A stretch of 27,269 nt of DNA from a virus (taxonomy: Duplodnaviria; Heunggongvirae; Uroviricota; Caudoviricetes). This document shows, one piece after another, positions 1,469 through 23,493 of this stretch. The stretch is taken from positions 1 to 27,269 of IMG/VR virus record IMGVR_UViG_2617270980_000004; one strand, 5' to 3'. Both the position numbers and the translations under genes were made by a program. How positions within the stretch are numbered: position 1 is the stretch's first letter; each line of letters starts with the position of its first letter. Under the pieces are notes generated by a model. It worked only from the letters and a program-made list of their open reading frames with translations, made no database searches and was not told the origin of the DNA.

Positions 1469-1587
1469 ACGCCTCGGGCTGGCTACTTAACCCCTGACCA
1501 CTGCCGGGTAACTCGAAGTATTGCCTGGCGTTCTGTGGGGCGGGGTGGGTTGATGAATGAACAATACCACTACTATTTAATTATGTA

Positions 1588-1602
1588 AATAGCAGTGCTA
1601 TT
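1588..1602. promoter_or_regulatory. OL-like operator: perfect palindrome AATAGCA-G-TGCTATT
   Basis: 15-bp perfect inverted repeat seen directly; the same motif family recurs twice between the repressor and cro genes. Confidence 0.5.
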
Positions 1603-1611
1603 ATCGTGGCA

Positions 1612-1636
1612 AGAAAAAAACCACCCGAAGGTGGTT
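1612..1636 (-). terminator. rho-independent terminator for leftward transcription, downstream of the toxin gene
   Basis: On the minus strand: stem ACCACC/GGTGGT with CGAA-type loop followed by a run of 7+ T. Confidence 0.55.
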
Positions 1637-1650
1637 GTTGACAGGAAGGA

Positions 1651-1941
1651 TTAACAGGTTTTGTTTGGATACTGTCTTCGTGAGTGAACTACATTTACGA
1701 TCTCGATGTTAGATGCTGTTACTCGGTAAAGTATTATGTAGTTAGGATGAGTCACTATCTCACGAAGACTTGGAACTCTTTCGCTCGGTGGGTACAGATA
1801 AGGGTGTTCAGTAAGTGACAAAACTGATGTTTCAATGCGTATTTTTAGTCTACGTGCAGCGGGAGGGTTTTCCTTAGCAATATAGGCTACGATCTGACGT
1901 AAATCATCACGTGCAGAAGGTAGCCATAAAATGGGCAGCAT
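1651..1941 (-). CDS. parE: ParE/RelE-superfamily type II toxin, 96 aa
   Basis: Size and sequence pattern of ParE/RelE toxins (N-terminal helical hairpin, C-terminal YRV...IVNVVHSRR). Start codon overlaps the stop of the upstream antitoxin (TAATG). Confidence 0.8.
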   Translation of the reverse strand: MLPILWLPSARDDLRQIVAYIAKENPPAARRLKIRIETSVLSLTEHPYLYPPSERVPSLREIVTHPNYIILYRVTASNIEIVNVVHSRRQYPNKTC

Positions 1942-2132
1942 TACTCACTCCTGTTCGTTGCAGCTAATTGAGCAATAAGGTTTTCCATTTCAGCCATTAC
2001 TTCGTCATGTGGAATTGCAGGACGGGGATCTGAGAGGCTTGCTGCCACTTTGGTTCGCAACCATTCGTTATAGCTGTTTTCTTGTTCGACTGTTTCAAAT
2101 TCAGAAATTATCGGGGAAAGGGCTGTACTCAT
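1941..2132 (-). CDS. cognate antitoxin, 63 aa (PaaA-like by recall)
   Basis: Small acidic protein translationally coupled to the toxin; GGAGG Shine-Dalgarno; starts 18 bp after the repressor stop with no intervening terminator. Confidence 0.75.
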   Translation of the reverse strand: MSTALSPIISEFETVEQENSYNEWLRTKVAASLSDPRPAIPHDEVMAEMENLIAQLAATNRSE

Positions 2133-2149
2133 GTTTTTACCTCCTCAGA

Positions 2150-2650
2150 TTAGGCGCGACGACCCTTTTGCGCAGCTAGCCATCGCGCAACGATTTCTTC
2201 AATTGATTCTTTTTTCTCCTTCATTTCCTTAAGCATTTTCTCTTTATCTTCTTTGGGGAAAGCCCTGAACGTCTGGAGCAAATCCCGCTCCATGGGGTCT
2301 ATATTAAACGGAAGTTCGTTTTCCGATTGTTCCATATCTGCAGATATAGTGACAACATTGTCCTCCCCAGATTCTTGGGGATACATCCTTACAATTTGTA
2401 ACAACTCGGCCATATCTGGTCTGATTGACTCGGGAGGAACTTGCAGCAACCCTGCGAACTTGATAACAGCCTCAAGATTTAAAGGTGTCTGACCATTTAG
2501 ATAATGGCTTACAGCTCCCTGTGTCGAAAATCCCAGAATTTCTGCCGCACGCTCTTGGGTTAACCCTAGTTGATTTTTTTTCGCCGTCCAGATTTCTTTC
2601 AGTCTCTGGGCGGCTTGCAGGTCGATCTCTGACAGGGATTTTCTTTTCAT
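2150..2650 (-). CDS. prophage repressor, XRE-family helix-turn-helix, without a LexA/S24-type autocleavage domain (CI/RacR/PaaR-like)
   Basis: HTH segment LGLTQERAAEILGFSTQGAVSHYLNG; C-terminal 90 aa are acidic/lysine-rich with no Ser-Lys peptidase dyad. Divergent from the Cro-like gene across an operator-bearing intergenic region. Confidence 0.85.
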   Translation of the reverse strand: MKRKSLSEIDLQAAQRLKEIWTAKKNQLGLTQERAAEILGFSTQGAVSHYLNGQTPLNLEAVIKFAGLLQVPPESIRPDMAELLQIVRMYPQESGEDNVVTISADMEQSENELPFNIDPMERDLLQTFRAFPKEDKEKMLKEMKEKKESIEEIVARWLAAQKGRRA

Positions 2651-2685
2651 ACCTTCAATTCTAATAAGATTATTAATCTCTTTGA

Positions 2686-2700
2686 AATAGTGATGCTATT
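2686..2700. promoter_or_regulatory. OR-like operator site AATAGTG-A-TGCTATT
   Basis: Near-palindrome matching the OL site at 13 of 15 positions; lies in the repressor/cro intergenic region next to a TTGAAA -35-like hexamer. Confidence 0.5.
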
Positions 2701-2710
2701 TACTTTTAAA

Positions 2711-2725
2711 AATAACAATGCTATT
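2711..2725. promoter_or_regulatory. OR-like operator site AATAACA-A-TGCTATT
   Basis: Second copy of the operator motif, 25 bp from the first. Confidence 0.45.
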
Positions 2726-2732
2726 AATGATC

Positions 2733-2745
2733 GTGATGACATCAC
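2733..2745. promoter_or_regulatory. perfect 13-bp palindrome GTGATGACATCAC just upstream of the cro ribosome binding site
   Basis: Seen directly; sequence is distinct from the AATAGCA/TGCTATT operator family. Confidence 0.35.
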
Positions 2746-2757
2746 ATGAGGTGAACA

Positions 2758-3033
2758 ATGAATCTTGGAGAATATTTGCATCATTCCGGTATAACTCAGA
2801 AGCATTTTGCTGAAATTGTTGGGGTAACCCAAGGGATGGTAAGCCATGTCATTACCGGACGGGCGAAACTTACGGGGAAAAAAATTTTACGCTGGTGCGA
2901 AGCAACAGGCTGGATAGTAACTCCGCACGAGATTGATGGCAGTACTTATCCCAACCCAACCGACGGCTTACCTGTCGAGTATCAGGCTAACACACAACCA
3001 GAGGCGGGGGGGATTCATGAAAATCAAGCATGA
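2758..3033 (+). CDS. Cro-like HTH regulator (YdaS family by recall)
   Basis: HTH ITQKHFAEIVGVTQGMVSHVITG; GAGGTG Shine-Dalgarno; divergent from the repressor. Confidence 0.8.
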   Translation: MNLGEYLHHSGITQKHFAEIVGVTQGMVSHVITGRAKLTGKKILRWCEATGWIVTPHEIDGSTYPNPTDGLPVEYQANTQPEAGGIHENQA

Positions 3034-3442
3034 ACACATCCGCATGGCAATGAATGCCTGGGCGTATCCAGACGGTGAGAAAGTTCCAGCAGCTGAAATA
3101 GCCCGGACTTATTTCGAACTGGGGATGACGTTCCCGGAACTGTACGACGACAGCCATCCGGAAGCCCTGGCCCGTAATACCCAGAAAATTTTCCGCTGGG
3201 TAGAGAAAGACACCCCTGATGCAGTTGAAAAAATTCAGGCGTTGTTACCAGCGATCGAAAAGGCAATGCCACCTTTGCTGGTGGCCAGAATGCGCAGCCA
3301 CAGTTCAGCTTATTTTCGGGAGCTGGTGGAGACGCGGGAGCGACTGGTGAGAGACGCTGATGATTTTGTCGCAGTGGCAATCGCCGGTTTCAATCAGATG
3401 AACCGTGGTGGCCCGGCAGGAAATGCTGTGGCAGTACATTGA
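3017..3442 (+). CDS. YdaT-like protein (CII-position gene of Rac-type immunity regions)
   Basis: Internal ATG at 3017 preceded by a G-rich Shine-Dalgarno. N-terminus MKIKHEHIR matches my recollection of Rac-prophage YdaT. The ORF-track start at 2933 is rejected because it lies inside cro. Confidence 0.7.
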   Translation: MKIKHEHIRMAMNAWAYPDGEKVPAAEIARTYFELGMTFPELYDDSHPEALARNTQKIFRWVEKDTPDAVEKIQALLPAIEKAMPPLLVARMRSHSSAYFRELVETRERLVRDADDFVAVAIAGFNQMNRGGPAGNAVAVH

Positions 3443-6352: not shown

Positions 6353-7039
6353 ATGACCCCAATAAAAATATTTATGACTATTGCTGATTTCAAACGGCCT
6401 AAATTGGAACTCCCAAACGGGGCAAACAAACTACTACTGCACTCTTGCTGTGCTCCATGTTCCGGTGAAGTGATGGAGGCGCTTCAGGCCTCGGGAATCG
6501 ACTACACCATCTTTTTCTACAACCCGAACATTCATCCTCAGAAAGAGTATTTAATTCGTAAGGATGAAAATATTCGCTTTGCTGAACAACACGGCGTGCC
6601 GTTTATCGATGCTGATTACGACACCGACAACTGGTTTGAACGTGCCAAAGGAATGGAATGGGAGCCTGAGAGGGGGATCCGTTGTACCATGTGTTTTGAC
6701 ATGCGTTTTGAGCGGACAGCGTTGTACGCTGCTGAAAATGGTTTCAGTGTGATCAGCAGTTCACTGGGCATTTCACGCTGGAAAAATATGCAGCAGGTTA
6801 ACGAGTGTGGGCGGCGAGCTGTTGCGCATTATCCGGGTATGGTGTACTGGGATTATAACTGGCGCAAGCAGGGCGGCTCGTCCCGTATGATTGAAATCAG
6901 CAAGCGCGAAAAATTCTATCAGCAGGAATATTGTGGCTGTGTGTATTCTCTGCGCGATACCAATCTACACCGCAAATCTCAGGGACGCCCTCTTATCAAA
7001 ATTGGCCAACTCCACTACGGAAAAGAAGAGAAGGAGTGA
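6353..7039 (+). CDS. QueH-like (DUF208) Fe-S protein, epoxyqueuosine reductase family (assignment from recalled motifs)
   Basis: Conserved cysteine clusters [20 protein letters not shown] and QEYCGCVYS. No clear Shine-Dalgarno; alternative start at 6374. Extended -10-like TGcTACACT upstream. Confidence 0.55.
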
Positions 7040-7217: not shown

Positions 7218-8342
7218 ATGCGGATGAAAGAATTAAATAAATTCAGAGTGATAGACCTCTTTTGTGGGGCAGGTGGATTATCTTATGGTTTTCTTCATGG
7301 AGAGATGTCTGACTACTTTGAAAGTATCCTTGCTATTGATAATAATGCTGCAGCTATAAATACCTACAATGCCAATTTTGGTTTGCATGGAGTTCAGGCA
7401 AATATTGAGGAGTGGGCATCCAGCAATACTGTTCCTGAGGCTGATGTGGTCATAGGTGGCCCCCCGTGTCAGGGATTCAGTTTATTAAATAAGAATCGTT
7501 ATGGTGATCACCGAAGAGCATTGTGGGAGCCTTATATGGATGTCATTGAGCGTTCAAGGGCTTGTATGTTCGTCATGGAAAATGTCCCCGGATTGCTGAT
7601 AAGCGATGAGTTTGCGGACATTACGTTTAGAGCGAAATCCATGGGCTTTATTCTGCTTAATCCAATGGTGTTGAATACTGCTGACTATGGAGTACCTCAG
7701 ACAAGAAAACGAACGATAGCAATCGGTATCAAACGAGAACTCTTCGATGTGCATAGTATTCCGGCGTTCCCGCCAGCACCAACGCATCGTTCCCCTGATA
7801 AGGATGTCGCTTTGCCTGAATGGGTCTGTACGCGTGATGCAATTGGTGACTTACCTGCTCCTGTTGGAACTGATATTCGTAATGAACTTCCTCCGCTGAA
7901 CTTACATTTTGGGCGTAATCCCACACCTGTTTCTTTGGAGCGATATAAAGCGGTTCCACCAGGAGGTAACCGTTTCGATTTACAGAAAAAAAGACCTGAT
8001 ATAACCCCGGCGTGCTGGCTAAAAAAGAAATCTGGAGGGACCGATTTGTTTGGACGTCTGTGGTGGGACAGACCTTCAGTAACGATTCGTACTGAGTTTT
8101 TCAAACCGGAGAAAGGGCGATATTTACATCCGGAAGAGGATCGGCCAATAACTCATCGTGAGGCAGCGAGATTAATGTCTTTTCCTGATAATTTCATTTT
8201 TACCGGTTCAAAAACTGAGATTGCAAAGCAGATCGGGAATGCTGTTCCACCGCTATTTGCGGCAAAAATCGCACAATATGTGTATGGAGTTTTGCAGGGA
8301 CGGTATAAGAATAACATCAGTAAGAATAGTCAAGCAGCCTGA
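7218..8342 (+). CDS. DNA (cytosine-5)-methyltransferase
   Basis: Canonical m5C motifs: I FCGAGGLSYGF, IV GGPPCQGFS, VI ENV, VIII QTRKR, X GNAVPP. Confidence 0.9.
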   Translation: MRMKELNKFRVIDLFCGAGGLSYGFLHGEMSDYFESILAIDNNAAAINTYNANFGLHGVQANIEEWASSNTVPEADVVIGGPPCQGFSLLNKNRYGDHRRALWEPYMDVIERSRACMFVMENVPGLLISDEFADITFRAKSMGFILLNPMVLNTADYGVPQTRKRTIAIGIKRELFDVHSIPAFPPAPTHRSPDKDVALPEWVCTRDAIGDLPAPVGTDIRNELPPLNLHFGRNPTPVSLERYKAVPPGGNRFDLQKKRPDITPACWLKKKSGGTDLFGRLWWDRPSVTIRTEFFKPEKGRYLHPEEDRPITHREAARLMSFPDNFIFTGSKTEIAKQIGNAVPPLFAAKIAQYVYGVLQGRYKNNISKNSQAA

Positions 8343-8355
8343 AGGAAATCCAGAA

Positions 8356-9234
8356 ATGAATGGAGATTTGGTTGACAGCATAGTTGGTTTTGCTGAAGCC
8401 AGAAAGGAGTTTCATGCCCAATTGTTACTGAATACGCTCACAATTAATACTGCCGGAGTTGTTAGTAACGCAGATAGCAGTAACAAAAACAGTAAAGCTA
8501 TAGCAAGAGAAATTGCTCGCTTCTTGCAGGCTGAAACGATTGGTGAACGTGTTGCAGGGCAAACATCTGGTAATCAGTTTGAGAGTATCTGCGCAGAGTT
8601 TATAGAAAAAACCTTTTTTAAACTCAGCCACTTACGCCCTGGAAAATGGAATGTACATCAGGTTTCTGGTAGAAACAGATTAGAGATAGCTAAATATGAA
8701 CAATATGCCCATCTTATAGCATTGGATAGTGCTGCAAAAAGTAATCCTCAGCTAGCTGCTGCACTGGGGAGTGATTATACGATTTCACCAGATATTATTG
8801 TTGAAAGAGAACCTGAATGTGATCAAGTTATCAACAGTCCTGAATTACTGGTGGATGATTCTGTTACCCGCATGTCAGCTCTCAGGAGTTCGAATGGTGG
8901 GAAACCAATATTACACGCAAGTATTTCCTGCAAATGGACAATAAGAAGCGACCGGGCCCAGAATGCTCGTTCTGAGGCATTAAATCTTATTCGCAACCGT
9001 AAGGGAAATCTCCCTCATGTAATGGTTGTTACTGCTGAGCCTACTCCAAGTCGTCTGGCGTCTATTGCTCTTGGTACTGGTGATATAGATTGCGTGTATC
9101 ATTTTGCGCTTTATGAACTTATATCAGCAGTTGAAATACTGGGGCTCAGCGATGCAGCTGACATGCTTTCCGTGATGGTTAATGGTAAAAGATTAAAGGA
9201 TATTTCTGATCTTCCCTTGGATCTTGCAGTCTGA
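8356..9234 (+). CDS. type II restriction endonuclease, NgoMIV/Cfr10I-like (inferred from catalytic-motif spacing)
   Basis: Immediately downstream of the m5C methyltransferase; AAGGAAA Shine-Dalgarno. PD at residues 145-146, S-C-K at 191-193, E at 207; the D-to-K (47) and K-to-E (14) spacings match what I recall for NgoMIV (D140, K187, E201). Family assignment unverified. Confidence 0.55.
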   Translation: MNGDLVDSIVGFAEARKEFHAQLLLNTLTINTAGVVSNADSSNKNSKAIAREIARFLQAETIGERVAGQTSGNQFESICAEFIEKTFFKLSHLRPGKWNVHQVSGRNRLEIAKYEQYAHLIALDSAAKSNPQLAAALGSDYTISPDIIVEREPECDQVINSPELLVDDSVTRMSALRSSNGGKPILHASISCKWTIRSDRAQNARSEALNLIRNRKGNLPHVMVVTAEPTPSRLASIALGTGDIDCVYHFALYELISAVEILGLSDAADMLSVMVNGKRLKDISDLPLDLAV

Positions 9235-13609: not shown

Positions 13610-13685
13610 GGCCCTTTAGCTCAGTGGTGAGAGCGAGCGACTCATAATCGCCAGGTCGCTGGTTCAAATCCAGCAAGGGCCACCA
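13610..13685 (+). tRNA. tRNA with CAU anticodon (resembles E. coli minor Ile tRNA ileX/ileZ by recall; Met not excluded)
   Basis: Cloverleaf folds by hand: acceptor GGCCCTT/AAGGGCC, D arm GCTC...GAGC, anticodon loop CTCATAA, T arm GCTGG TTCAAAT CCAGC, 3' CCA encoded. Confidence 0.85.
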
Positions 13686-13785: not shown

Positions 13786-13862
13786 GCGTTGTTAGCTCAG
13801 CCGGACAGAGCAATTGCCTTCTAAGCAATCGGTCACTGGTTCGAATCCAGTACAGCGCGCCA
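13786..13862 (+). tRNA. tRNA-Arg (anticodon UCU)
   Basis: Cloverleaf folds by hand: acceptor GCGTTGT/ACAGCGC, anticodon stem ATTGC/GCAAT with loop CTTCTAA, T arm ACTGG TTCGAAT CCAGT, 3' CCA encoded. Confidence 0.85.
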
Positions 13863-21271: not shown

Positions 21272-21835
21272 GTGCTGACAACGCAAAAACGAAAATTTGC
21301 GCTGGCGCTCATGTCCGGGAAAAACAAAACAGCGTCAGCCATTGCCGCCGGTTATTCGGCGAAGACCGCCAGGGTTAAAGGCTCGCAGCTGGCAAAAGAT
21401 CCGGAGGTGCTCGCGTTTATAGCCCGTAAACAGTGCGAAACGGTGGAGGTGGATGAGGTTCCTGTTTACCGGCAGAAAAAATCAGAGCAGGAGGATAAAC
21501 CCCGTCGCCGTGAGGCGGCTGCAATACCACAGCCGGACGAAAACAATCCGGAGATGCCACCGCCTGCGGTGATGTCTCATGGTATTGAATATATGGAGGA
21601 TGGTCTTCCCGATCCGGTGAAAGCTATGGGGCAGATCCTGGTGGAAAACCTCAGCATTGATCCGAAACTGGCACTGGATGCGGCCTGGCGACTGGCGCAG
21701 TTCACACACCATAAAAAAGGCGATGCCGGTAAAAAATCGGCAAAAGGTGATGCCGCGAAAAAAGCGGCTAACCGTTTTGCGGTACCACCACCACCACGAC
21801 TGGTGGTGAATAACGATAATGAGGGCAACGGATGA
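21272..21835 (+). CDS. terminase small subunit
   Basis: GTG start after GGAGG; N-terminal HTH-like region; lysine-rich C-terminus; stop overlaps the TerL start (ATGA). Confidence 0.75.
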   Translation: MLTTQKRKFALALMSGKNKTASAIAAGYSAKTARVKGSQLAKDPEVLAFIARKQCETVEVDEVPVYRQKKSEQEDKPRRREAAAIPQPDENNPEMPPPAVMSHGIEYMEDGLPDPVKAMGQILVENLSIDPKLALDAAWRLAQFTHHKKGDAGKKSAKGDAAKKAANRFAVPPPPRLVVNNDNEGNG

Positions 21836-23493
21836 TACCTGTATGGAGCACGGCCTGCCCGGACTGGGCAGAGCGCCTGAAAAAGGGGCTGTCGATTATT
21901 CCGGCTCCGATTTATCCGGACCAGGCCGCACATGCCCTGGCGATTTTTAAACAACTGCGGATTGTGGATGCACCGGGTAGCCCGACGTTCGGGGAGTCCT
22001 GTGCACAGTGGGTGTTTGACCTGGTGGCGGCTCTGTTTGGCTCCTACGATGCGCAGACCGGTGTCCGCCATATCAAGGAAGTGTTCATTCTGATACCCAA
22101 AAAAAACAGCAAGTCCACACTGGCCGCCGGGATCATGATGACGGCGCTGTTACTGAACTGGCGGCAGGCGGCGGGTTACACGATTCTGGCCCCGACTGTG
22201 GAGGTGGCAGCCAACGCCTTCAATCCTGCCAGGGATATGGTACGACGGGACGATGATCTGGATGACCTCTGTCAGGTGCAGACACATATCCGGACCATCA
22301 CCCACCGGGTGACGGACACCACCCTGAAGGTGGTGGCAGCCGATCCGAATACGGTGTCCGGTATCAAGTCCGTGGGGACGCTGATTGATGAGTTGTGGCT
22401 GTTTGGCAAGCAGTACAAGGCGGAGGACATGTTACGTGAAGCCATCGGCGGGCTTGCCTCCCGCCCGGAAGGGTTTGTGGTGTATACGACCACCCAGTCG
22501 AATGAACCGCCAGCCGGGGTGTTCAGACAGAAACTGCAGTATGCCCGGGATGTGCGCGACGGCAAAATTCATGATCCGCACTTTCTGCCGGTGATATTTG
22601 AACACCCTCCTGAAATGGTGGAAAGCGGGGCTCACCTGCTGATGGAAAACCTCGCCATGGTCAATCCGAATCTCGGCTATTCAGTGGATGAGGCCTTTCT
22701 GTACCGGGAGTACCGTAAAGCCCGGGAGGCTGGTGAGGAAGCATTTCGTGGCTTCATGTCAAAACATGCCAATGTGGAAATTGGTCTTGCCCTGCGTTCT
22801 GACCGCTGGGCGGGTGCGGATTTCTGGGAGCAGCAGGGCAGGCGCGTCAGCCTGGACGATATCCTGCAGCGCGCTGATGTGGTGACGGTGGGGATTGACG
22901 GCGGGGGCCTGGATGATCTGCTGGGAATGTACGTGATTGGCCGTGACAGGGAAACCCGCGAATGGCTGGGCTGGGGCCATGCCTGGGCGCATGAAACCGC
23001 GGTGGTCAGACGGAAGAGTGAGGCATCCCGTTTTCAGGATTTTGTGGCCTGTGGAGACATGACGATTGTCCGTCGGGTCGGGGATGACACGGCGGAAGTG
23101 GCGGAGTATGTGCGTCGTATTCATGAGGCTGAGTTACTGGAGCATATCGGTATTGACCCGTCAGGTGTGGGGCAGATTCTGGATTCACTGGCGGAAGCCG
23201 GGATCCCCGACGGAATTGTGGTGGGGATAAGCCAGGGCTGGAAACTGGGCGGGGCCATTAAAACCACCGAGCGCAAACTGGCTGAAGGGGTGCTGGTGCA
23301 TGGTGACCAGCCCCTGATGGCCTGGTGTGTCGGCAATGCCCGGGTGGAGCCTAAAGGTAACGCCATTCTTATCACCAAACAGGCCAGTGGACGGGGAAAA
23401 ATTGACCCGCTGATGGCGCTGTTCAATGCGGTCTCCCTGATGTCCCTTAACCCGGAACCGAAAAAGAAAGAATATGCGGTTTTTTTCATATAA
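21832..23493 (+). CDS. terminase large subunit (HK97-like Terminase_1 type)
   Basis: Size 553 aa; Walker-A-like LIPKKNSKST; nuclease-domain acidic residues; coupled to TerS. Confidence 0.85.
   Translation: MIPVWSTACPDWAERLKKGLSIIPAPIYPDQAAHALAIFKQLRIVDAPGSPTFGESCAQWVFDLVAALFGSYDAQTGVRHIKEVFILIPKKNSKSTLAAGIMMTALLLNWRQAAGYTILAPTVEVAANAFNPARDMVRRDDDLDDLCQVQTHIRTITHRVTDTTLKVVAADPNTVSGIKSVGTLIDELWLFGKQYKAEDMLREAIGGLASRPEGFVVYTTTQSNEPPAGVFRQKLQYARDVRDGKIHDPHFLPVIFEHPPEMVESGAHLLMENLAMVNPNLGYSVDEAFLYREYRKAREAGEEAFRGFMSKHANVEIGLALRSDRWAGADFWEQQGRRVSLDDILQRADVVTVGIDGGGLDDLLGMYVIGRDRETREWLGWGHAWAHETAVVRRKSEASRFQDFVACGDMTIVRRVGDDTAEVAEYVRRIHEAELLEHIGIDPSGVGQILDSLAEAGIPDGIVVGISQGWKLGGAIKTTERKLAEGVLVHGDQPLMAWCVGNARVEPKGNAILITKQASGRGKIDPLMALFNAVSLMSLNPEPKKKEYAVFFI

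Follow-up and report, generated by a model that had tools for sequence, protein, structure and literature searches.

Does the toxin-antitoxin pair found in the immunity region of a lambdoid E. coli prophage belong to the repressor operon, and what kind of repressor heads that operon? We addressed this question in the window, i.e. the whole stretch of 27,269 nucleotides analysed here, which originates from an E. coli prophage and includes a lambdoid immunity region where repressor, antitoxin and ParE toxin genes had been recognised in a preliminary description made from the sequence alone. The analysis was computational and covered the order and coupling of the genes, their homologies and domain architecture, the operator repeats with their co-variation, mosaic boundaries and purifying selection. 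Our preferred reading, to which we assign a probability of roughly 0.8, is that the locus is the immunity switch of a lambdoid E. coli prophage of the DicA/Rac/CP-933P type, with a PaaA-ParE type II cassette riding in the repressor transcript.

Gene order and coupling

The repressor, antitoxin and toxin ORFs, with coordinates matching those of the preliminary description, all lie on the minus strand (Table 1). The leftward trio spans positions 2650 to 1651 and is tightly coupled: the repressor stop codon (TAA, 2152-2150) is separated by 17 nt from the antitoxin ATG at 2132, and the antitoxin stop overlaps the toxin start in a TAATG at 1941. A single intrinsic terminator follows the toxin gene, with a predicted folding energy of -10.4 kcal/mol; its hairpin and T-run are kept in position, with differing stem sequences, in loci L002, L003 and L004. 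The sole further terminator-like match within the operon (2325-2309) is weak (5 bp, -6.6 kcal/mol). Another match, at 1597-1568, was rejected as a terminator, as it is the AT-rich inverted repeat of OL.

All three ORFs have Pfam matches (Table 1) and, compared with homologous loci, show dN/dS ratios of about 0.1 or saturated synonymous sites (antitoxin dN/dS 0.07-0.22; toxin dN 0.10 with synonymous sites saturated), and they are therefore real genes and not chance ORFs. ORFs, 17-nt gap, TAATG and single terminator all agree with the earlier proposal of one tightly coupled leftward operon in the immunity region. Thus, repressor, antitoxin and toxin look like one leftward operon, the co-transcription of which would be expected by analogy with paaR2-paaA2-parE2.

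Divergent from the repressor gene lies a ydaS-like gene, at the same position as ydaS in CP-933P, followed by a ydaT-like gene whose relatives are annotated as YdaT family. On the far side of the operon, downstream of the proposed PL, are the DUF1391-ydfB-ydfC genes. The left arm of the prophage is interrupted by an IS element at ~835, and the prophage may therefore be defective.

Table 1 Features of the immunity region, with positions in the window.
Feature	Position	Strand	Details
Proposed PL	1561..1589	-	-35 TTTACA 1589-1584, 17-nt spacer, -10 TATTGT 1566-1561
OL, two proposed operator palindromes	1563..1602	.	1563-1577 and 1588-1602, centres 25 bp apart
Intrinsic terminator of the three-gene operon	1612..1636	-	AACCACC-UUCG-GGUGGUU + U7, 7-bp stem
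ParE-family toxin gene, 96 aa	1651..1941	-	Pfam ParE_toxin 6.6e-18, profile positions 1-89/89
PaaA-family antitoxin gene, 63 aa	1941..2132	-	Pfam PaaA2 PF21217 1e-21
Shine-Dalgarno of the antitoxin gene	2140..2146	-	GAGGAGG, 7 nt 5' of ATG, within the 17-nt gap; read from sequence
Immunity repressor gene, 166 aa	2150..2650	-	Pfam HTH_3 9.9e-10
Immunity-specific segment: repressor DNA-binding domain and linker, OR, most of ydaS	2281..2942	.	
Proposed PRM	2658..2686	-	-35 TTCAAA 2686-2681, 17-nt spacer, -10 TAGAAT 2663-2658; consensus 9/12
OR, two proposed operator palindromes	2686..2725	.	2686-2700 and 2711-2725, centres 25 bp apart
Proposed PR, driving ydaS-ydaT	2699..2727	+	-35 TTTACT 2699-2704, 17-nt spacer ending TGC, -10 TATTAA 2722-2727
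ydaS-like HTH gene, Cro analogue, divergent from repressor	2758..3033	+	Pfam HTH_3 9e-6; phrog_35 4e-20
ydaT-like gene, CII analogue	3017..3442	+	Pfam YdaT_toxin 1.1e-9; phrog_163 'CII-like transcriptional activator' 1.2e-44

The toxin-antitoxin pair

By sequence homology, the pair is a true PaaA/ParE homologue. The antitoxin matches NCBIfam NF050103 (1e-26) and the PaaA2 chain of PDB 3zbe (2e-22), and the toxin matches the ParE2 chain of PDB 5cw7 (5e-36). Reference PaaR2, PaaA2 and ParE2 sequences were taken from locus L005, the regulator of which begins MQKKE as published and the toxin-antitoxin pair of which has no mismatch to the PDB chains in the aligned stretches. Identity is 70% to PaaA2 for the antitoxin and 65% to ParE2 for the toxin, rising to 84% and 88%, respectively, for the second O157:H7 copy, L002. 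PaaA2 (PF21217) is the antitoxin's only Pfam match, and no DNA-binding domain is found in it. The locus thus has the three components of a PaaR-PaaA-ParE system, namely a ParE2-homologous toxin, just upstream of it a small PaaA2-family antitoxin devoid of a DNA-binding domain, and further upstream an HTH_3 regulator, with a Shine-Dalgarno in the 17-nt gap and one terminator after the toxin. The resemblance to the E. coli O157 arrangement pointed out earlier is therefore well founded as far as the pair is concerned. Toxicity, neutralisation and repression of the operon would be expected of the window's genes from the work on paaR2-paaA2-parE2, with purifying selection as the supporting evidence from the window itself. 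PaaA/ParE-like DNA is present in 842 of 5426 complete E. coli genomes.

Repressor architecture, possibly a natural hybrid

The preliminary description had attributed to the repressor an HTH but no LexA-type Ser-Lys peptidase domain, and Pfam, AlphaFold and Foldseek all bear this out. Residues 1-89 (nt 2650-2384) make up a lambda-CI-like arm and five-helix HTH domain, residues 90-112 a linker that is disordered in the AlphaFold model (pLDDT <50), and residues 119-165 (nt 2296-2156) a C-terminal helical hairpin of the PaaR/DicA type. The model is all helical, devoid of beta strands, with tail helices at 119-130 and 133-165. Chains of the lambda CI N-terminal domain are matched at 1e-9 by phmmer and, by Foldseek, with TM scores of 0.81-0.93 (the 0.93 being target-normalised) and an E-value of 1.5e-5; arm and five-helix domain are 34-39% identical to those of lambda CI. 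Glu33 and Glu37 of the window's repressor align with lambda Glu34 and Asp38, and the acidic character is thus kept at positions that we take to be the sigma-70 contact patch of lambda CI.

The C-terminal tail has other relatives. The last 44 residues are 55% identical to PaaR2 and are the only part aligning with it, while the PaaR1-like regulator of L002 is 47% identical over 87 aa and 70% over the last 44 codons. Full-length homology to PaaR2 or PaaR1 is absent, the alignment being limited to the C-terminal ~44-50 residues. Thus, of the alignment to PaaR2/PaaA2/ParE2 that had been suggested as a check, the antitoxin and toxin parts hold along with the repressor tail and the remainder of the repressor does not; the suggested comparison with RacR detected no similarity to the repressor. 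A sequence search with the window's repressor found no PaaR2 chain in the PDB. The tail is also related to DicA (NF007257 positions 75-130, 1.5e-7; BLASTP 2e-5, 27% over 51 aa) and to phrog_5736 (positions 85-132/133), and contains the DicA/PaaR-type tail motif (LL..F..LP.ED ... ARWLAAQK-like). With a CI-type DNA-binding domain joined to a tail of the DicA/PaaR kind, the repressor resembles a natural hybrid. Relatives of 244 aa have two unlike HTH domains in a row and might act as immunity repressors of dual specificity; at one such two-HTH repressor locus (L008), the regulatory regions showed no PaaR1-type operator (ACTGTT...ACAGT, as in L002).

An S24 peptidase domain is absent: PF00717 gave no match at E-values up to 0.01, and the protein has only 77 residues beyond its HTH domain. 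The search was able to detect such a domain, since P0031, a distant homologue of the repressor's N-terminal domain, scored for PF00717. Neither AG nor CG dipeptides occur in residues 90-118 (PQESGEDNVVTISADMEQSENELPFNIDP), so that an Ala-Gly or Cys-Gly cleavage site is absent. With neither S24 domain nor Ala-Gly site, RecA-stimulated self-cleavage is not expected.

Proposed operators and promoters

The proposed operator is a 15-bp palindrome, AATAGCAnTGCTATT, present in two copies at OR and two at OL. The window contains six matches to it with at most 3 mismatches where 1.0 is expected, a number reached in 0 of 100 shuffles, and the four matches with at most 2 mismatches are every one located at OL or OR. 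A third operator at 2663-2677 was considered and rejected, with only 9/14 consensus positions. In L001, L007 and L008-L010, the paired motif flanks the repressor operon and recurs between repressor gene and ydaS; it is absent from PaaR1/PaaR2-type loci. From locus to locus, the motif co-varies with the CI-like DNA-binding domain. The OL patch, ~70 bp long, is immunity-specific, while the DNA flanking it is conserved in PaaR1-type loci. We propose these repeats as sites to which the repressor may bind.

The first OR site abuts the -35 element of the proposed PRM, and the OR pair covers the proposed PR. No Shine-Dalgarno is found at a usable distance from the repressor ATG, and the PRM -10 element ends 7 nt 5' of this ATG, which implies a leaderless mRNA; for paaR2, experiments have shown leaderless expression, a property also known of lambda cI (PMC8630535), and by analogy the repressor mRNA is probably leaderless as well. 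The putative PR is missing from the promoter scan list because its -10 lacks a T at position 6; L008, a 66%-identical relative, has the same TTTAC(A/T)-17-TATTAA geometry. The candidate PL, with 9/12 matches in the consensus scan and a TG before its -10, faces DUF1391-ydfB-ydfC and is overlapped by both OL operators, in the same geometry as at PR. Overall, the promoter scan is at shuffle level (4 found versus 3.4 expected).

A search for the YdaT box (TTGATT-N6-AATCAA) returned one site with 2 mismatches at 3010-3027, which we do not claim since matches in the window are at chance level (12 versus 13.8 expected). This site lies at the ydaS/ydaT junction, where CP-933P has PRE.

Mosaic boundaries and immunity type

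At the DNA level, the immunity-specific segment (Table 1) shares no homology with PaaR1-type loci or with those of PaaR2. By blastn, homology to L002 is limited to 1098-2280 and 2943-3440, and that to L008 is found at 2391-3300. By sequence, repressor DNA-binding domain, ydaS and operators together are a distinct immunity type, which was found in 72 of 5426 E. coli genomes; strains 2013C-4991 and O104:H4 2009EL-2071 are examples of its lysogens. No deposited phage genome carries the window's repressor, and phage Evi is the only one with a paaR2-type cassette.

These boundaries also bear on whether PaaA-ParE could be an autonomous two-gene unit, transcribed from its own promoter within the 3' part of the repressor gene and next to the repressor only incidentally. 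A sigma-70-like match (TTGTCA-18-AACAAT, 2355-2326) does lie inside the repressor gene, and the pair follows regulators whose DNA-binding domains are of at least three different kinds. However, this promoter match is at the chance level given above, and PaaA has no DNA-binding domain with which to regulate itself (Pfam; PMC8630535). Moreover, every E. coli locus examined has the pair right after a regulator with the same C-terminal tail, homology to PaaR1-type loci continues unbroken from the toxin-antitoxin genes into the regulator 3' end, and the homologous operon was shown to be co-transcribed (PMC8630535). We thus consider autonomy highly improbable, and retain the reading of a cassette within the repressor transcript.

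Relation to known systems

The combination of a repressor with PaaA/ParE has already been published for paaR2-paaA2-parE2 of the cryptic prophage CP-933P in E. coli O157:H7 (Hallez 2010; Jurenas 2021, PMC8630535). There, co-transcription of the operon was shown, PaaA lacks a DNA-binding domain, and PaaR2 is the CI analogue of its own prophage, leaderless and without a peptidase motif (PMC8630535). The statement in the preliminary description that a phage repressor occupies the regulator position is therefore true, but it describes the known system and not a departure from it. The window and CP-933P/Sp12 share the leftward order of regulator, PaaA without DNA-binding domain, and ParE, the setting divergent from ydaS-ydaT and upstream of the replication genes, a regulator lacking a peptidase domain, a leaderless-type promoter geometry and operator sets on both sides of the operon. 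In contrast, the DNA-binding domains are unrelated in sequence, that of the window being CI-like (E 1e-9) whereas PaaR2 is, according to its authors, without sequence similarity to CI (PMC8630535). The window's repressor has 166 aa with a disordered linker of ~25 residues, versus 123 aa for PaaR2; its operators are AATAGCAnTGCTATT instead of the GTTTAGTAA-type repeats reported for CP-933P (PMC8630535); and the two ydaS genes have no homology at the DNA level. Since DNA-binding domain, operators and ydaS all differ, the window is a heteroimmune member relative to CP-933P, and only the DNA-binding half of the repressor sets this locus apart from the published layout.

Leaving aside loci of the window's own type, L002 has the closest toxin-antitoxin pair. 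The position of this locus fits CP-933M/Sp4, and from strain and map position we presume it to be paaR1-paaA1-parE1. DNA homology with it runs without a break from the genes of the left arm, across the toxin-antitoxin pair, into the last ~130 nt of the regulator gene, and the terminator is at the same place, but the L002 regulator (133 aa) has a different HTH domain and the OL and OR sequences are unlike.

With the lambda cI-rexA-rexB operon transcribed from PRM, the window has in common an operator abutting the PRM -35, a leaderless mRNA, here predicted, and accessory genes downstream of the repressor. It differs in having a repressor without the S24 peptidase/oligomerisation C-terminal domain and Ala-Gly site of lambda CI, in the recognition helix and operator sequence, and in its cargo, a toxin-antitoxin pair instead of RexAB. 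Finally, Qin of K-12 (dicC-dicA-ydfA-ydfB-ydfC) has the same flanks, with a cro-like gene, the repressor and ydfA (DUF1391)-ydfB-ydfC, but lacks a toxin-antitoxin cassette between dicA and ydfA. In pairwise comparison, the HTH domain of DicA has no significant similarity to the window's repressor, whereas the helical tails are alike and neither protein has a peptidase domain. The tail is the sole part of the repressor common to both PaaR2 and DicA.

SOS induction

From the lack of a peptidase domain it had been concluded that SOS induction must use another route than self-cleavage. This claim presupposes that the prophage is SOS-inducible and finds no support in the window, where no LexA box was found and, among the ORFs of 90 aa or more scanned, no antirepressor gene. 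LexA-controlled antirepressors have precedents in Tum of coliphage 186 and in the antirepressors of Gifsy and N15. The corresponding explanation here would be that such a protein inactivates the non-self-cleaving repressor, and it is in line with the absent peptidase domain, with the missing left arm, where an antirepressor gene could have sat, and with a possible candidate, the Rha-family gene found beside dicB or kil in the PL operon in the left arm of some relatives (L003, L007). On the other hand, no CTGT-N8-ACAG box was found in the window or in L001, the closest relative with an intact left arm, and L001 has no annotated Rha or Ant gene. Two LexA-box matches in other loci were unrelated to the repressor-PaaA-ParE module. 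The window's ORFs of at least 90 aa between 3.4 and 21 kb include no recognisable antirepressor gene (Ant, KilAC, BRO, Tum or Rha), the left arm being cut by the IS element. Furthermore, mitomycin C gave no induction of Sp6, Sp9 and Sp10, lambdoid prophages of O157 Sakai with repressors lacking the peptidase motif (PMC2669165), and PaaR2 is described by its authors as not reactive to mitomycin C (PMC8630535). We thus judge the antirepressor route quite improbable, and a bistable, SOS-insensitive switch more likely than an SOS-induced one.

A possible cargo slot downstream of the repressor

In relatives, the slot just 3' of homologous repressor genes has varied contents. In the metagenome relatives L008-L010 it contains HipA_2 and DUF3037, which match the PADLOC candidate defence system PDC-M66A/B, in Salmonella L011 HigB/HigA, and downstream of dicA in K-12 Qin it is empty. 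In lambda, the equivalent slot downstream of cI is occupied by rexAB. Could PaaA-ParE then be mainly anti-phage or abortive-infection cargo of the lysogen, with a function resembling that of rexAB, instead of an addiction module? The differing slot contents would fit an exchangeable bay of lysogen-expressed accessory genes. However, no PADLOC model is matched by repressor, antitoxin or toxin, and no defence phenotype is reported in the cited literature. In the published system, plasmid stabilisation (addiction) was shown, and ParE2 activity was undetected in either state of the switch (PMC8630535). We consider such a primary anti-phage role unlikely. Speculative, and in our view unlikely, is the general form of the idea, namely that the stretch between the repressor gene and OL/PL is an exchangeable cargo bay under the repressor's own promoter and PaaA-ParE a lysogen-expressed defence or exclusion device. 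If true, PaaA-ParE would fire upon collapse of transcription from the repressor promoter, for example if the immunity region is replaced or silenced by a heteroimmune phage entering the cell, and would be more than a passive addiction module.

A model of the switch

We favour the immunity switch with a co-transcribed addiction cassette, and its proposed workings rest on homology and sequence logic. The repressor would bind the palindromes at OR and OL and thereby turn off both the rightward promoter of ydaS (cro-like) and ydaT (cII-like) and the leftward PL, with its helical C-terminal tail probably driving the formation of higher-order oligomers. Its leaderless mRNA would start at the PRM-like promoter and read on through paaA and parE to the terminator. 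PaaA, having no DNA-binding domain, would only neutralise ParE, presumably a gyrase-directed toxin. Upon loss or replacement of the immunity region, ParE would be freed, the antitoxin being presumably labile, and the cassette would thus act as an addiction module stabilising the immunity region and the prophage. Co-transcription, leaderless translation, repression logic, oligomerisation, antitoxin lability, toxicity and addiction are modelled here on the paaR2-paaA2-parE2 work.

The locus is an ordinary new instance of a published architecture, in which the type of regulator is what differs, and its importance beyond annotation is small. It shows that a toxin-antitoxin pair within a lambdoid immunity switch, as in CP-933P, is not an O157 oddity. 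The repressor gene, now annotated merely as 'helix-turn-helix domain-containing protein', can be named as a prophage CI analogue, and we propose a concrete operator sequence for it. That its relatives have other toxin or defence-like genes in the slot provides a modest lead for research on prophage defence and stabilisation.

Operon organisation and gene content

Repressor, antitoxin and toxin had been described as one leftward operon, and this holds. The repressor stop codon (TAA, 2152-2150) and the antitoxin ATG are 17 nt apart, the antitoxin stop and toxin start overlap in TAATG, and an intrinsic terminator follows. A hairpin with a T-run, differing in stem sequence, is found at the matching position in three homologous loci. 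The sole further terminator-like match within the operon is a weak 5-bp stem at 2325-2309 (-6.6 kcal/mol). All three ORFs match Pfam families (repressor HTH_3, 9.9e-10; antitoxin PaaA2, 1e-21; toxin ParE_toxin, 6.6e-18, full-length). Comparison with homologous loci gives the antitoxin a dN/dS of 0.07-0.22, and dN is 0.10-0.36 for the toxin and repressor tail, where synonymous sites are mostly saturated. The three are thus real genes.

Features of the immunity region and of other genes in the window
Feature	Position	Strand	Remarks
HTH repressor ORF	2650-2150	minus	166 aa
GAGGAGG	2146-2140	minus	between repressor stop and antitoxin ATG
Antitoxin ORF	2132-1941	minus	63 aa
Toxin ORF	1941-1651	minus	96 aa
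Terminator AACCACC-UUCG-GGUGGUU + U7	1636-1612	minus	10 bases past toxin stop; -10.4 kcal/mol
OR palindromes AATAGCAnTGCTATT, 15 bp	2686-2700, 2711-2725		centres 25 bp apart
OL palindromes AATAGCAnTGCTATT, 15 bp	1563-1577, 1588-1602		centres 25 bp apart
Proposed PRM TTCAAA-17-TAGAAT	2686-2658	minus	ends 7 nt ahead of repressor ATG
Proposed PR TTTACT-17-TATTAA	2699-2727	plus	overlapped by OR sites; read by eye
Proposed PL TTTACA-17-TATTGT	1589-1561	minus	overlapped by both OL sites
13-bp palindrome GTGATGACATCAC	2733-2745		perfect; between PR -10 and ydaS Shine-Dalgarno
ydaS-like HTH gene	2758-3033	plus	divergent from repressor; Pfam/PHROG profile match
YdaT-box-like GGGATTCATGAAAATCAA	3010-3027		2 mismatches to TTGATT-N6-AATCAA
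ydaT-like gene	3017-3442	plus	phrog_163 'CII-like transcriptional activator', 1e-44
IS3-family transposase fragment	94-792	plus	left end
QueH (epoxyqueuosine reductase) homologue	6353-7039	plus	nin region; Pfam 1e-65
Type II restriction-modification pair	7218-9234	plus	C-5 cytosine DNA methylase (4e-54), then NgoMIV-family restriction enzyme (1e-126)
Two tRNA genes	13610-13685, 13786-13862	plus	downstream of Q antiterminator and N6/N4 methylase

The window represents a lambdoid prophage of E. coli; 72 complete E. coli genomes have chromosomal prophages that match a 1.7-kb region of it at 99.7-99.9% identity. DUF1391/ydfA, ydfB and ydfC lie to the left of the operon; DnaT-like and lambda-P-like replication genes come after the ydaT-like gene. 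K-12 Qin has the equal order dicC-dicA-ydfA-ydfB-ydfC, but its dicA-ydfA interval is empty; the toxin-antitoxin cassette and its terminator therefore fill a slot between the repressor and OL/PL. Taken together, the operon's surroundings read as a complete immunity switch. Relatives hold other small genes at the QueH position, and the two phage-borne tRNA genes encode a tRNA with anticodon CAT (relatives annotate tRNA-Ile at the corresponding position) and tRNA-Arg(TCT).

A PaaA-ParE cassette behind a chimeric regulator

The antitoxin matches the solved PaaA2 structure (3zbe, 2e-22) and the toxin matches ParE2 (5cw7, 5e-36). The reference paaR2-paaA2-parE2 locus was recovered from an O111:NM genome; its regulator begins MQKKE, in agreement with N-terminal sequencing of PaaR2 (PMC8630535), and its toxin-antitoxin pair matches the PDB chains wherever the two align. 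The window antitoxin and toxin are 70% and 65% identical to this pair, bearing out the suggested likeness to the O157 prophage systems. A second O157:H7 copy, which from its CP-933M/Sp4 map position is presumably paaR1-paaA1-parE1, is closer (84% and 88%, respectively).

The regulator aligns with PaaR2 over its last 44 residues only (55% identity), and with the PaaR1-like regulator in its C-terminal part only (47% over 87 aa, or 70% across the last 44 codons). Over its first ~90 residues it is similar in sequence to the lambda CI N-terminal domain (1e-9). The AlphaFold model (mean pLDDT 75) is all-helical: residues 8-89 make up five helices, 90-112 are disordered and 119-165 fold into a helical hairpin. 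Its top Foldseek matches are CI N-terminal-domain structures (target-relative TM 0.81-0.93). The tail also resembles the DicA C-terminus (NCBIfam NF007257 positions 75-130, 1.5e-7; BLASTP 2e-5); pairwise comparison with RacR, which the preliminary description had proposed, found no similarity. Neither an S24 peptidase domain nor an Ala-Gly site was found by Pfam, in the sequence or in the model, in line with the claim of an HTH repressor devoid of a LexA-like Ser-Lys peptidase. The window regulator is a CI-type DNA-binding domain joined to a PaaR/DicA tail, and its locus is a heteroimmune member that adds to the published systems.

Predicted operators and promoters

With up to 3 mismatches, the predicted operator motif occurs 6 times in the window against 1.0 expected (0 of 100 shuffles reach 6), and the four best matches are the two OR and two OL sites. 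The paired motif flanks the operon in both loci carrying the window's repressor (L001, L007) and in three metagenome loci (L008-L010) with a 63-67% identical CI-like domain and other cargo, and is absent from every PaaR1-like or PaaR2 locus compared. The operator sequence predicted for this repressor is new.

The proposed PRM ends close to the repressor ATG and no usable Shine-Dalgarno was read ahead of that ATG, which implies a leaderless mRNA. The proposed PR, which the OR sites overlap as the OL sites do PL, is missing from the promoter scan output; its geometry recurs in a 66%-identical relative. Lambda CI Glu34 and Asp38, the sigma-70 contact patch, align with Glu33 and Glu37 of the window repressor, with acidic character conserved. 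One OR operator lies directly against the PRM -35 as well; together these features make positive autoregulation plausible.

The GTGATGACATCAC palindrome differs from the operator motif; it may bind another regulator or form a hairpin in the 5' UTR. The GGGATTCATGAAAATCAA match lies exactly at the ydaS/ydaT junction, as does the YdaT-activated PRE of CP-933P; such matches are about as numerous in the window as chance predicts.

Immunity substitution and cargo in relatives

Relative to a PaaR1-type locus, DNA homology covers 1098-2280 and 2943-3440, and the gap at 2281-2942 takes in OR and ydaS together with the part of the repressor gene that encodes the DNA-binding domain and linker. Relative to L008, the homologous segment is 2391-3300. 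A ~70-bp OL/PL patch is immunity-specific, with conserved flanks. This pattern is the classical lambdoid immunity substitution, one junction falling, by these alignments, within the repressor gene between DNA-binding domain and tail.

In L008 (4001-6360), L009 and L010, the repressors are 244-aa tandem HTH proteins, a CI-like domain plus a complete PaaR1-like protein, followed by HipA_2 and DUF3037 (PADLOC PDC-M66A/B) in place of paaA-parE. In Salmonella diarizonae (L011, 4001-5339), a 154-aa, 50% identical repressor relative precedes HigB/HigA in the equivalent slot, and a TumE-family gene lies ~2.5 kb off on the opposite side. That the slot is a cargo bay and the cassette a defence device we consider unlikely.

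Prophage induction

The preliminary description stands as to operon, family and missing peptidase domain; its claim that SOS induction must use another route does not follow. Scanning for CTGT-N8-ACAG found no LexA box in the window or in L001, its closest complete relative, and the proposed search for an antirepressor found no such family among ORFs of at least 90 aa (window 3.4-21 kb). The Sakai lambdoid prophages Sp6, Sp9 and Sp10, whose repressors lack the peptidase motif, gave no induction with mitomycin C (PMC2669165), and PaaR2 is said to be non-reactive to it (PMC8630535). Homology to other E. coli prophages starts at 835, just past the IS3-family fragment; the PL arm is therefore interrupted or missing in the window. 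In relatives this arm holds dicB or kil, Rha, exonuclease, xis and int, the Rha-family gene in some of them, and an antirepressor gene may lie outside the window. The nin region of L007 (E. coli fS10a prophage), the closest overall relative, carries at 21344-22182 an HTH and ImmA/IrrE metallopeptidase pair, absent from the window, with a CTGT-N8-ACAG box just downstream.

Proposed mechanism

The biology is already described for a close homologue: three-gene architecture, immunity-region placement, CI analogy, leaderless expression and the missing peptidase motif are published (Jurenas 2021, PMC8630535; Hallez 2010, as far as cited). By direct analogy with the CP-933P experiments (PMC8630535), the repressor would bind OR and OL, repressing PR and PL, and would control its own leaderless PRM transcript, which would also code for PaaA and ParE. 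YdaS would be the Cro analogue competing at OR, and YdaT the CII analogue. The repressor tail would mediate oligomerisation; PaaR2 is an octamer in solution (PMC8630535). PaaA would be a labile antitoxin, lacking a DNA-binding domain, that wraps ParE. Loss of the immunity region would free ParE, and the cassette would therefore stabilise the region.
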